A stretch of DNA of 64,000 bases from Candidatus Poribacteria bacterium (GTDB lineage: Bacteria; Poribacteria; WGA-4E; WGA-3G): assembly GCA_965197475.1 (NCBI GenBank), contig CBDANF010000003.1, forward strand, positions 160,001-224,000, written 5' to 3'. The translations under genes were made by a program, and so were the position numbers. Below are positions 43,306 through 51,482 of this stretch, in pieces (within the stretch, counting starts at the first letter, position 1; the number at the start of each line of letters is the position of its first letter). The notes below the pieces were generated by a model. That model was not told the DNA's origin and did no database searches. It saw nothing but the letters and a program-made list of their open reading frames with translations.

Positions 43306-44817
43306 ATGATTCCGATGGACACCAAAATTTCCGACGATTTTCCCCCGAAGTTTGCAAAAGAAGGGTTAACTTTTGACGATGTTTTGCTCATTCCCGCAGA
43401 ATCGAGTATTTTACCTGATGAAGTTGATACAAGCACACAGTTGACGCGGAATCTTCGGCTTAATATCCCTATCTGTAGTGCCCCGATGGATACCGTCACC
43501 GAATCTACCCTTGCTATTGCAATTGCGCGGGAGGGTGGTATCGGAATAATTCACTATAACTGTTCTATTGAGGAGCAGGTATCCGAAGTGGATCGTGTGA
43601 AACGTTCAGAAAGCGGAATGATAAGCGATCCGATTACGTTAACGAAGGATAAAACGATCCGGGATGCCCTTGAGATAACCGCTCGTTACCGCATCGGTGG
43701 TGTGCCTATCGTAACTGAGGACGGCCATCTTGTCGGTTTAATTACCAACCGAGACCTCAAATATGAAGATAATCTGGATCTTCCCGTTACTACTCGGATG
43801 ACACCCGCGGATAAATTGATTACCGCATCCCGAGGTGTTACGCTTGAAAAAGCGAAACAGGTGCTTCACAAGCATAGGAAGGAGAAACTGCCAATAGTTG
43901 ATAGCGAATCACGGTTATGTGGGTTGATCACTATCAAGGATATTGACAAGGTGCAGATGTTTCCACACGCTTGTAAGGACGATGCGGGTCGGTTACGTGT
44001 TGGTGCAGCGGTTTTGCCGTCAACACCTCTGGATAACGTTGAATTGTTGGTAAAGGCAGACGTAGATGTGCTTGTGTTAGATACCGCACACGGTCATTCC
44101 AAAAATGTAATTCGGGCAACAGAATATATAAAATCAGAATTTCCGGATATTGAACTTGTCGCAGGGAATGTCGTCACCCCTGAAGCAACGCGAAGCCTGA
44201 TTGATGCGGGGGCGGATGCTGTTAAGGTCGGTGTCGGTCCTGGGTCTATTTGCACAACGCGTGTTGTGGCAGGTGTCAGTATTCCTCAAATCACTGCAAT
44301 TTACGATTGCGCCCAAGAAGCGGATAAAGCCGGTGTGCCAATTATTGCCGACGGCGGTATCCGCTATTCTGGTGACATCGCCAAAGCGATTGGTGCTGGC
44401 GCAAGTTCCGTGATGATTGGTAGCCTCCTTGCTGGTACTGACGAAAGTCCAGGGTCTACAGTTATCTATCAGGGCAGAACATATAAGATTCACCGTGGTA
44501 TGGGTTCATTGGGAGCATTGCGAAAAAGAAACATTGAACTCGGAGAGCAAACAAGTGATGAAGAAATGGCAAAACTCGTGCCACGCGGTATTGAAGGTCG
44601 TGTTCCTCACAAAGGTAAACTGAGCAATTTTGTCTATCAATTGGTGGGTGGGATTCGTTCTGCAATGGGATATTGCGGCACGTCTGATATTGAGTCGTTA
44701 CGCAGAGATGTCCAATTTGTCCGAATGTCAAGCAGCGGTTACCGAGAAAGCCATCCGCACGATATTGATATTACTGAGGAAGCACCGAACTATACGGTCG
44801 CTAACCTGAACACATAA
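43306..44817 (+). CDS. guaB: IMP dehydrogenase
   Basis: [18 protein letters not shown] pair, [31 protein letters not shown]. Confidence 0.97.
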
Positions 44818-44857
44818 ACTATTGAGACTCAGTAAGTCAAGCAAAGGGAGAAAAACG

Positions 44858-45961
44858 ATGAAAATCCGTATTGAAATCCTCACAACTTTACTATTGACGA
44901 CCGTTACTCTGCTCGCTGGCTGCTCTGGCTGCGGACAGAAAACCGCCCCCGAACACGCAGACCCTTATAACCAAGCAGAACACGGACCCGTCGCGGCGAA
45001 TAGCCGAAAGCCCGTAAAACTAACCATTGTTGAACCGAGTTTTGAGAGACTGATAGAACAGTTCAAAGCAGATGTCACTGAAAATAAGGGGGACCCAGAG
45101 ATGCTCAAACGCAAAAGAAAAGCAATTGCCAACCCCGATATACTGTGGGATGGCATCGGATTTGAGGTGCCCCCCACACTAAATTTCGATGAAATCCCAA
45201 GACTGCCGGGCTACAATCCAACACGCGATAAGATAAAAGTCCGCTCTTATTCTGAAAAAGGAAAACCTATACACGGGGTCTATGATCATGACAAAGAAGT
45301 GTATCCTTTTGCGGGCAAAGTTATCTACAAAACAAAAGATCAAGAGGAGAGGTTGGATGCTGTACGGCAAAACTGGAGGCATTTGAATCCAAATTCCGAC
45401 CCAGATGATACTAACTACTATCGAAAACGTGCTCCGATTGTGTATGAGGGAATAGATACACTCATTGCTGCAAAACATCTGAGTCAAGCGTTTAGCCCTG
45501 CTAAAAAAGCTCTTGGCGTTGAATATGCGGAGCGTGCAATACGTGAAAATCCGAACTCTGTTGAAGCGATGCGTATTTGGGTCAAATGCCATCCTGAAGA
45601 TCAAAAGATTGAGGCATACCAACAGCTGCTTTCAAAGTTCCCCAACGATGCGTTTGCTCACGAGCAAATCGCCGGCTACTACTACCGCGAAGAAGATACG
45701 GTTTCCGCCCTGGACCACATGCTGAAGGCTTGTCTGTTAGATAGTCGTATCGCGAAAACGAATGACTTATTAGCCAAATGTTATTTCAAACTCAGTGAAT
45801 GGGAGAAAGCCGTTGCTGCGTATCAGGGCATGGATTATTTTGTCAGTCCGAATTTTCTCTTTGAGAGTCCTGACAAAATAACTAAAGCCAAAGATGAGGT
45901 GCATAAGCAGCGAAAAGGGTATTCAGTTATAGAATTAACACAAGAAGGATATGACAAATGA
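44858..45961 (+). CDS. Variable TPR lipoprotein A1
   Basis: Lipobox LLAG-CSGC; C-terminal TPRs; paralog of A2-A4. Confidence 0.85.
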   Translation: MKIRIEILTTLLLTTVTLLAGCSGCGQKTAPEHADPYNQAEHGPVAANSRKPVKLTIVEPSFERLIEQFKADVTENKGDPEMLKRKRKAIANPDILWDGIGFEVPPTLNFDEIPRLPGYNPTRDKIKVRSYSEKGKPIHGVYDHDKEVYPFAGKVIYKTKDQEERLDAVRQNWRHLNPNSDPDDTNYYRKRAPIVYEGIDTLIAAKHLSQAFSPAKKALGVEYAERAIRENPNSVEAMRIWVKCHPEDQKIEAYQQLLSKFPNDAFAHEQIAGYYYREEDTVSALDHMLKACLLDSRIAKTNDLLAKCYFKLSEWEKAVAAYQGMDYFVSPNFLFESPDKITKAKDEVHKQRKGYSVIELTQEGYDK

Positions 45962-46101
45962 AATATCGCATTTCTGTTTTGACATTGTTTAGTGTGCTGA
46001 ATCCGTCCGCTGCGGATGGTCCACCGAGTGTTTCTATAGAGTCAGCGAATTTGGATGCGTATAATGGGTGGTTACCGAGAAAGCCATCCGCACGATATTG
46101 A
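45958..46101 (+). pseudogene. 5' stub of secreted protein B, type 1
   Basis: MKYRISVLTLFSVLNPSAADGPPSVSIESANLDAYNGWLP, then runs out of frame into the guaB tail. Confidence 0.7.
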
Positions 46102-46150
46102 TATTACGGAGGAAGCACCGAACTATACGGTTGCTAACCTTGCTACATAA
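46070..46150 (+). repeat. guaB 3' tail copy 1 (81 bp, matches 44737-44817); similarity continues through the intergenic spacer
   Basis: Encodes [26 protein letters not shown]. Confidence 0.95.
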
Positions 46151-46190
46151 ACTGTTGAGACTCAGCAAGTCAAGCAAAAGGAGAAAAACA

Positions 46191-49823: not shown

Positions 49824-49967
49824 ATGAAATATCGCATTTCTGTTTTGACATTGTTTAGTGTGCTGAATCCGTCCGCTGCGGATGGTCCACCGAGTGTTTC
49901 TATAGAGTCAGCGAATTTGGATGCGTATAATGGGTGGTTACCGAGAAAGCCACCCTCACGATATTGA
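49824..49967 (+). pseudogene. 5' stub of secreted protein B, type 1 (second copy)
   Basis: Matches 45958-46069 with the same junction. Confidence 0.75.
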
Positions 49968-50016
49968 TATTACGGAGGAAGCACCGAACTATACGGTTGC
50001 TAACCTTGCTACATAA
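49936..50016 (+). repeat. guaB 3' tail copy 3 (81 bp)
   Basis: Same as copy 1 except CAT CCG changed to CAC CCT (both His-Pro). Confidence 0.95.
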
Positions 50017-50056
50017 ACTGTTGAGACTCAGCAAGTCAAGCAAAAGGAGAAAAACA

Positions 50057-51088
50057 ATGGAACTTCGTATAGAAAAGTTCTTAACTTTATTTATGATCGC
50101 GATTATATTCCTCGCGGGTTGTTCGGGGTGTGCACAAAAAAACGCTCTAAAAGGGATTGAACCGACCAAGGATTACAAAGAACAATCAAAATACGGACCG
50201 ATCGCAGCGAACAGTCGCAAACCGGCAAAACTGCCCCCGTTCCCCGAACCGAGTTTCGAAAACCTGATAGAACAGTTCAAAGCGGATGTCGCAGCGAACC
50301 GTGGTAATCCGGGAGCATTGGAACGCAAACGAAAAGCGATTGCTAATCCCAATATTTTAGATTGGCCCTTCTTTGTCTCTGCTGGTGATTACAAAAAAGG
50401 GGAACAACCACTGTCTAAATTATACAGATATGAGACTATCACTATCAAAACAACAGCGGAACAAGAGAAAAGACTGGATGCCTTAAGGTCAGAGGAGCTC
50501 CCATCTGATGTACACAAACGAAAAAGAAACGAGATTTATTTTGGGGGTGTTGATACCCTTACCGCTGCAAAGTATTTTATGACGCGTGGCAGTAGAAATG
50601 CCTCCACCTATGGGGTTGAATATGCCGAGCATGCCATGCGCGAAAATCCAAATTCCGTTGAAGCTATGCACGTCTGGGCGAGATGCAGCAGCAACACTAA
50701 GGACAAAGAAAAGGGAATTGCGGTATTCCGCAAGATGCTGTCCAAGTTCCCGAACGCTGCCGCAGCCCACATTGGACTCGCACAGAATCTCTTTTATCAG
50801 GCTCTGAAGGTTCAAAGGGAGTTTGGTGCTGGTTCTCATATAAATCTTGTGGAAGAAGCACTTCACCACACACAGACAGCGATACAACTTGACAGCCGCA
50901 TCCCACGGTATAACTACTTATTAGCGCGGTGTTATTTTGAACTGGGAGAATGGGAAAAGACGCTTATTGTCTACCATGGAATGCCTTCTATTGGTATGGG
51001 AGCTGCTTTTAATTTGACATTTCAGAGAGCTCATGGAAATCTCGCGAAACAAAGGGGTGAATATTCTCTCTTTAGAGGGACTGAATGA
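50057..51088 (+). CDS. Variable TPR lipoprotein A4
   Basis: N-terminus near-identical to A2, remainder divergent; TPRs. Confidence 0.85.
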   Translation: MELRIEKFLTLFMIAIIFLAGCSGCAQKNALKGIEPTKDYKEQSKYGPIAANSRKPAKLPPFPEPSFENLIEQFKADVAANRGNPGALERKRKAIANPNILDWPFFVSAGDYKKGEQPLSKLYRYETITIKTTAEQEKRLDALRSEELPSDVHKRKRNEIYFGGVDTLTAAKYFMTRGSRNASTYGVEYAEHAMRENPNSVEAMHVWARCSSNTKDKEKGIAVFRKMLSKFPNAAAAHIGLAQNLFYQALKVQREFGAGSHINLVEEALHHTQTAIQLDSRIPRYNYLLARCYFELGEWEKTLIVYHGMPSIGMGAAFNLTFQRAHGNLAKQRGEYSLFRGTE

Positions 51089-51172
51089 TAAAGATGCTCT
51101 CCTCTGCATAATATTTGTGGGCGCAATTTTAATCTATAAACCCATAATAGAAAACAATAATGGATAAACAAT

Positions 51173-51482
51173 ATGAAAAATTATTATCTCACTATTTTAT
51201 TTTTACTGTTTACATCACTCCCGTTTGCCCACGCACAAAACGTCTGTATAGAACCGTTAAATAAAACAGAGTTTAATGCGTGGCTACCTGAAGATGGGGA
51301 CACGGTCACTTTTCTTGTGACCGTCGCAGGTGCCCAATCCACAGGTTCCATCGAGTTAAATCTTACCAATGTATCTACTTGGGAAGGGACATGCATGAAC
51401 AAAGGGACAGGCAACGATGCTGATCTATACTTTACCAGAACAGATCAGGTATTAGCGGGTAGGATTCGTTCTGCTATGGGAT
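51173..51482 (+). pseudogene. 5' stub of secreted protein B, type 2, plus the start of guaB tail copy 4 (51462-51482), cut by IS3
   Basis: MKNYYLTILF...WLPEDGD...DQVLAG-RIRSAMG. Confidence 0.85.

Follow-up and report, generated by a model that had tools for sequence, protein, structure and literature searches.

In Vibrio cholerae, arrays of type VI secretion system (T6SS) immunity genes have been attributed to sequential displacement (Kirchberger 2017, PMC5361080). An array of related build is described here from a genome of a Candidatus Poribacteria genus (G000; completeness 92.7%, contamination 6.97%), in a window of 64,000 nucleotides (G000:C3:160001-224000, the whole stretch analysed) where guaB is followed by a row of genes for tetratricopeptide repeat (TPR) lipoproteins (A, with the window alleles A1 to A4), by remnants of a downstream partner gene (B) and by detached copies of the guaB 3' end (guaB tails). 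Positions follow the numbering of the window unless a contig is named (C2 and C3 are contigs of G000). As in V. cholerae, a homology anchor with an illegitimate join is proposed, orphan partners stand in a row, no integrase is involved and finished arrays spread by homologous recombination (PMC5361080), and by analogy the array mechanism resembles that of known immunity-gene arrays. There, the incoming effector-immunity pair is complete and the previous effector disappears (PMC5361080), whereas the newcomers at guaB mostly lose B; moreover, the anchor here is a housekeeping gene that leaves its 3' end behind as a repeat, A comes before B, and the pair consists of a TPR lipoprotein and a metalloprotease-like protein with a signal peptide rather than of a T6SS effector and its immunity protein. 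The tandem immunity paralogues esaG and tipC of the firmicute type VII secretion system (T7SS) likewise form non-identical strings that expand, shrink and turn mosaic through recombination between conserved blocks (PMC9484751), as the A1-type alleles do here, while the block shared here includes the 3' end of a housekeeping gene and partner stubs, and crosses species.

Regarding gene layout, the potempin/KLIKK-peptidase pairs of Tannerella forsythia are similar in that a lipoprotein gene lies directly upstream of a secreted peptidase gene, often overlapping it, in that conserved signal peptides precede divergent mature proteins and in that a cognate complex is formed, which for A and B is a prediction; potempins are, however, beta-barrels of 98-132 residues and A a helical TPR protein of 260-440 residues, and recombining orphan arrays do not feature in the covered parts of that source (PMC9890683). 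The classification of A as a potempin was rejected on its fold, a helical TPR and not a small beta-barrel. Rhs and CdiA proteins undergo C-terminal displacement, which leaves rows of orphan modules with truncated partners, and these modules retain toxin C-termini and immunity genes. Orphan rows and truncated partner genes are also found behind guaB, where, unlike in Rhs and CdiA, only the N-termini of B remain, without the catalytic domain. Integrons and integrase islands place cassettes behind one strong promoter and duplicate the 3' end of a gene, both of which recur here, but without a nearby integrase or a fixed site; an integron or integrase island was rejected for the lack of a recombinase at the locus and for the 11 positions at which guaB tails start.

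Homology-facilitated illegitimate recombination has usually only been proposed for natural arrays. At this locus one can read the scars as well as the empty site and an intermediate (genome G049), which makes route and direction testable with genomes. The source records of the B homologues name Candidatus Poribacteria, and three of the listed sequencing runs are labelled sponge metagenome. Poribacterial repeat proteins of this kind are treated only in general in the available parts of one report (PMC3909097), no paper on this A-B pair or locus was found in a literature search whose scope excluded most subscription journals and supplements, and the pair looks undescribed. The account put forward below, in which a hotspot for an A-B module has a two-step recombination history, was split by insertion sequences (IS) and holds a library of A genes that block B, is favoured as a whole with moderate confidence.

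The guaB array and its distribution in the genus

The order given in the original prediction, guaB followed by a series of A gene, B stub and guaB tail with an IS630 and an IS3 element, agrees with the sequence and with its self-comparison (Table 1), and so does the placement of each A gene behind a guaB stop codon and one spacer of about 40 bp: all four A genes are preceded by TAA and a 40-bp spacer, and the spacers agree at 36-40 of 40 positions. The predicted tails of 81 bp were recovered, whereas those of 167 and 21 bp measure 177 and 31 bp, as the second junction type starts at guaB position ~44641. In the window, what is left of B in the stubs is the signal peptide and a portion of an immunoglobulin (Ig)-like domain, and the A-B spacing changes from an overlap of 4 bp (A1/B1) to gaps of 11 bp (A2/B2) and 84 bp (A4/B2'). 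Two weak matches apart, no terminator-like site with a clear T run was found on the + strand within the array.

Self-BLAST aligned 44640-45937 with 47581-48894 (90.7% identity), 45936-46439 with 49802-50305 (95.2%) and 47312-47612 with 51173-51482 (85.8%), with E-values from 3.6e-4 for the shortest tail to 0, so that the repeats are not due to chance. The window thus holds one two-cassette block present twice, and its four cassettes are not independent captures. In A3, the last seven codons were lost to IS630; its extra base is carried in sequencing run X1 and is absent from runs X4 and X5.

Further parts of the array, not included in the original prediction, lie elsewhere in the genome. On the minus strand of C2 at 335-350 kb there are six more guaB tails and seven more A genes, and this part ends in A-B-nuoI, followed by the genes that follow guaB in relatives. 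A twelfth A gene at C3:2,850,762 stands behind an IS3 copy and the same 40-bp spacer; after it come the opening codons of a B gene and then two IS elements. On C2 this IS pair recurs ahead of the first B gene, and a 6-bp duplication is common to both outer flanks, which points to the probable original order of the split array: guaB and A1-A4, then a stretch lost at IS3, then A5, B, seven A genes, a further B and nuoI. The window is therefore probably the front third of a 12-A array that was split by insertion sequences. Neither of the two B genes on C2 has a whole frame, and they share a 3' segment of 1,774 bp, including the nuoI start, at 99.7% identity.

Copy number varies among relatives, as predicted. 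In the comparison set of 40 genomes of the genus, the DNA after a full guaB was read in 28, where guaB is followed directly by nuoI in 18 (the usual order in the genus), by an A gene in nine and by an A/B remnant in one; in a sequence comparison, none of the other 12 showed a full guaB running into the spacer and A start seen in the window. The gene following guaB is presumed from its sequence to be nuoI. Detached guaB tails occur in 8 of the 40 genomes, and the A1/A2 subfamily was matched at E ≤ 1e-25 in 12 of 120 genomes of the order, of which 11 belong to this genus. Around guaB, A frames are mostly whole, whereas the majority of B genes are stubs or carry frameshifts or internal deletions. 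The interval between guaB and nuoI serves as a hotspot for a polymorphic A-B module of two genes, and A remaining mostly intact while B decays suggests that a library of A alleles is under selection.

Rows of A genes with B stubs are also found beyond guaB, at least in G000 (C2:1,134-1,146 kb), G050, G051, G001 and G016. The locus at G000:C2:1,134,000-1,146,700 has four A-like genes, 88-94% alike, then a whole B of 1,002 residues, and is followed by a gene that we take to be rph-like. On C9 of G052, the gene upstream has its last 62 bp repeated behind the cassette. A 29-bp guaB tail with an A-B unit lies far from guaB in G007 (L060, C1 at ~5.32 Mb), behind a gene presumed to be purH-like, and similar displaced units were seen at L035 and L054.

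Proposed insertion at guaB and reuse of the scars

A two-step recombination history is considered likely. In a rare first step, incoming DNA of a relative would recombine by homology in or before guaB, while its other end would join illegitimately, often at few shared bases, giving guaB, a new A gene and a B stub followed by a guaB tail and the old content. Each scar would leave the guaB tail, the spacer and the A 5' end as a repeat, and in a common second step homologous recombination would copy blocks, swap alleles and move ready-made blocks between species without deletion; a cassette lying between guaB and a guaB tail could enter by two ordinary crossovers, again without deletion. Insertion sequences would then have split the array. 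Transformation may have been the route: ComEC and DprA were above the cut-off, which concerns the presence of the genes only; 10 of 14 control genomes also match.

Regarding the first step, G049 carries A-A-B after guaB, then a tail of 120 bp and intergenic DNA that is nearly the same as that of the empty site in G012, and its guaB differs from that of G012 at 15 of 900 positions in the 5' part and at 37 of 603 in the 3' part (p=5e-6). Read from the sequence, this geometry clearly indicates an additive insertion anchored in guaB and would give the direction of one event; the insertion anchored by guaB homology that the original prediction proposed thus has one clear case, with the resident guaB end pushed downstream. 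Among the 10 genome pairs compared for divergence of the two guaB parts, G006-G022 has the same 3' excess (p=4e-7). Among the joins whose parent can be seen, the bases in common with guaB number from 10 exact ones (G052, 44777) down to about 2.

The guaB tails start at 44345, 44585, 44589, 44641, 44644, 44659, 44698, 44715, 44737, 44777 and 44789; two of these starts (44345 and 44644) look like later deletions, and the start at 44698 has two different left partners. Copies of the guaB promoter follow the cassette at L052 (G055), L057 (G041) and L059 (G011), so that joins can also land upstream of guaB. In G055 a 5'-deleted guaB comes first and the whole guaB last, and in G041 the promoter and 22 bases of guaB are kept before nuoI. 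Of the two microhomologies suggested earlier for the junctions, gggt.ggatt lies inside the guaB-derived part and falls away, and ggttacc is plausible as B1 codons at the junction, given that almost all B sequences have W-x-P. A B1 parent of full length was absent from the 40 genus genomes, and was not seen among proteins P0006-P0039, of which the first 130 residues were viewed. A mosaic test on nuoI gave no clear signal.

Regarding the second step, the B1 junction (44737) is present in seven copies of 98-100% identity, four in G000 and three in G003. The segment 44737-47331 is 97.5% identical to G003 over 2,595 bp, compared with 82-87% for the flanking core genes, and one tail in G003 has 2 mismatches in 81 positions to the guaB of G000 versus 12 in 81 to its own. 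Eight A1-type alleles are patchworks that switch their nearest partner in 100-bp blocks (0 versus 35-42 differences). A2 and A4 have the same flanks yet are 62.5% alike, as expected from allelic exchange. Shared junctions, the cross-species block and the patchworks together indicate that scars were made rarely and then reused as homology.

Several observations weigh against this history. A number of other joins share only 2-7 bases, and for the two junctions of the window no parent was found in the 40 genomes. The 3' excess in guaB is also seen in G014-G017, both of which are empty (p=0.003), and is absent from G003-G020 (p=1.0) and G041-G015 (p=0.14), so that guaB evidently recombines anyway; the G049 tail, moreover, is only slightly nearer to G012 (6 differences) than to its own guaB (8). 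None of the runs has raw long reads spanning the array.

The original prediction had each cassette captured separately by a new join, in a strictly polar series with the newest beside the promoter. The G049 geometry, the 11 tail starts and the strong promoter consensus are in keeping with such a series, which is nonetheless improbable: reuse of identical junctions within and between species, with seven copies of the 44737 junction, contradicts it for the window, and it is further countered by the duplicated block, the patchwork alleles and those joins that fall in the nuoI start or the guaB promoter. Single-nucleotide differences in the tails do not resolve the relative age of the window cassettes. 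Very improbable is a purely intragenomic origin, by tandem duplication at microhomologies and divergence in place. It would account for the single duplication of the window block, for the tails of G000 being closest to the guaB of G000 (9 of 9 tested) and for the duplicated segment of B end and nuoI start on C2, but A2 (99.5%) and A4 (85%), mutually 62.5% alike, have relatives in other species, pairwise identities indicate that A alleles group across species, the G003 block is far closer than the core genes, and G049 joins an occupied to an empty allele.

That strain haplotypes were assembled in tandem is harder still to sustain. The contamination of G000 and the lack of a single sequenced piece across the whole array would allow it; the same junction, however, occurs in the single-contig genome G003, contigs from two runs of different studies, X4 and X5, extend across the 46070 junction, and the array contains an IS630 and an IS pair with target duplications. 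Hardly credible, finally, is a site-specific integrase with an att site in guaB: four genomes do have joins grouped at 44585-44589, and a start at 44698 occurs twice, but the tails start at 11 positions, the sole tyrosine recombinase match (PF00589) in the genome (92.7% complete) lies at C3:2,069,666, 1.86 Mb away, with none among the open reading frames (ORFs) at 38-58 kb, and the same genome has no resolvase match (PF00239). The absence of an integrase and of a fixed att core at the locus, noted originally, was therefore upheld.

Proteins A and B and their predicted pairing

A has a conserved signal peptide with a lipobox-like G-C-x-G-C, a variable middle and TPR helices; its predicted model is helical (predicted local distance difference test, pLDDT, 82), the best Foldseek matches are TPR superhelices, and the ESM Atlas returned only generic TPR clusters for A2. 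Where whole, B has 821-1,230 residues with a signal peptide, an Ig-like domain, a zinc motif and FN3 repeats, and appears to be the secreted metalloprotease-like partner of A that the original prediction missed. In its HExxHxxGxxH motif the three His and the Glu are present in 11 of 11 proteins and the Gly in seven, and [ST]IMDY, which we take to be the Met-turn, follows 21-176 residues after the zinc motif in 7 of 11. Fold searches with B were filled by its N-terminal Ig-like domain (best Z 10.3, root-mean-square deviation 2.5, 116 aligned residues), hence do not contradict a metzincin fold, and in a search of solved structures with the B alignment the best 60 matches listed were FN3 proteins.

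Binding of A to its own B is predicted, with fairly good confidence, from a complex model of the last A-B pair of the C2 array. This scored 0.67, compared with 0.27 for the best of three controls; of solved pairs 116 of 157 attained the mark, and of mismatched pairs 2 of 215, counts that apply here only roughly because our own alignments served as input; the runs agree in at least 80% of contacts and partner pLDDT is at least 83. Contacts on the A side lie in its variable parts. The best-supported ones place the C-terminal hairpin of A (365-374) on a helical insertion of B (506-529), and the zinc motif (409-419) and Met598 are flanked by two further segments of the footprint on B, 346-351 and 600-608, which metzincin anatomy would place at the cleft rim. 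Across 11 pairs from several loci, similarity of A tracks similarity of the B catalytic domain (Mantel r=0.61, p=0.0006).

That A inhibits B is put forward tentatively, as somewhat short of an even prospect, and blocking of B proteases, both a cell's own and those of neighbours, would be the likeliest use of the A library. The evidence on the other side includes a borderline Pfam call for the metzincin domain of B (Reprolysin_4, 22.1 bits against a cut-off of 22; 7 of 29 members), with protease activity itself putative; zinc ligands outside the confident contacts; a modelled pair that is distal rather than in the window, with the cognate A as the only one modelled and close cousins often passing; and the capacity of linkage alone to yield co-variation of A and B, the pairs not being independent.

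With the same history, A might instead serve as a surface anchor, or as a folding or secretion partner, that holds B on the cell. This is doubtful, though it would fit the best-supported contacts, which lie off the zinc site, and the discussion of poribacterial TPR, FN3 and Ig domains as host-interaction proteins in the available parts of PMC3909097. A footprint on both sides of the predicted cleft, together with a gene layout as in the potempin-peptidase pairs, speaks against it. On this same doubtful reading, orphan A proteins would capture the B of neighbours or vary the cell surface against phage or host. If A does inhibit B, a dominant sponge symbiont that is uncultured would possess an array of the immunity type directed at a secreted protease. 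Somewhat less probable than inhibition as such is an undescribed conflict of protease and inhibitor in this genus, in which orphan A genes would be an acquired inhibitor library against the B metalloproteases secreted by neighbours and guaB tails would be reusable homology arms, with cassettes added by plain recombination without an integrase and traded between species inside sponges. The array has the look of protease blockers that have been collected and swapped, and it may hint at an undescribed rivalry between related symbionts; the locus also supplies a panel of cognate and non-cognate pairs for direct expression and assay.

Feature coordinates and minor observations

Table 1. Features of the guaB array in the window (ribosome-binding site, RBS)
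Feature	Position	Strand	Basis or remark
Sigma-70-type promoter consensus upstream of guaB	43042..43070	+	12/12, extended -10; consensus match only
guaB (IMP dehydrogenase), intact; 3' end is the homology anchor	43315..44817	+	PF00478, 512.9 bits
Spacer, 40 bp, with RBS; precedes every A gene	44818..44857	+	Sequence comparison
A1, 367-aa TPR lipoprotein, patchwork allele	44858..45961	+	Translation, family and allele comparison
B1 stub: signal peptide and start of Ig-like domain	45958..46069	+	Start overlaps A1 stop by 4 bp
guaB tail, 81 bp (guaB 44737-44817)	46070..46150	+	75/81 identical
A2, 369-aa TPR lipoprotein	46191..47300	+	DNA 99.5% identical to G003 copy
B2 stub, fused in frame to next guaB tail	47312..47581	+	148-aa ORF 47312-47758
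guaB tail, 177 bp (guaB 44641-44817)	47582..47758	+	167/177 identical
A3, A1-type allele, frameshifted near 48233, 3' end cut by IS630	47799..48897	+	Sequence comparison
IS630-family element, TA duplication, multi-copy in genome	48895..49801	-	DDE_3 match
Second B1 stub	49824..49935	+	112/112 identical to first B1 stub
guaB tail, 81 bp	49936..50016	+	73/81 identical to guaB 44737-44817
A4, 343-aa TPR lipoprotein	50057..51088	+	DNA 85% identical to A directly behind guaB in G005
B2' stub	51173..51451	+	B-family comparison
guaB tail remnant, 31 bp, cut by IS3	51452..51482	+	27/31 identical
IS3-like element, 26 near-identical genome copies	51483..52727	+	Self-comparison; left and right flanks unmatched

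Between the guaB promoter and the start codon lies a 162-bp element (43138-43299) resembling a miniature inverted-repeat transposable element; at other places G000 has 12 more near-identical copies in full and one in part. In-frame fusions of a B stub and a guaB tail are found not only at 47312-47758 but also at L036 (151 residues at 8974-9429 and 174 residues at 11991-12515), and these ORFs carry a signal peptide and the GuaB C-terminus.

The element at 51483-52727 is presumed to be IS3 from the earlier label and from features of that family. Its unmatched flanks mark a rearrangement, and a signal-peptide ORF on the minus strand (52694-53014), whose 3' end is cut by the right end of IS3, indicates that the two flanks are of different origin. 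Several IS3 copies in G000 (e.g., C3:14246, C2:1487662 and C3:3253471) have one flank in common with another copy and no target duplication, which suggests repeated IS-mediated rearrangement. Two overlapping ORFs at 53018-54243 (minus strand) presumably represent one frameshifted serine hydrolase of the beta-lactamase type, by its motif.

An alignment-based metagenome scan gave 112 pattern matches, none of them confirmed, and hence no strain-level arrays, and from RNA run X16 only pieces of low depth were obtained. In run X1, mean depth was 739 on the contig of A2 (46388-47448), 1031 on that of A4 (50254-51232) and ~81 on this guaB allele, values that are contig means and not copy numbers, with uncovered parts proving nothing; several species may share the A2 and A4 alleles. 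In runs X4 and X5, a contig of 2,923 bases runs along A2 and the B2 stub over 1,176 bases (46388-47563), then leaves the window sequence and may hold the whole B2 parent.

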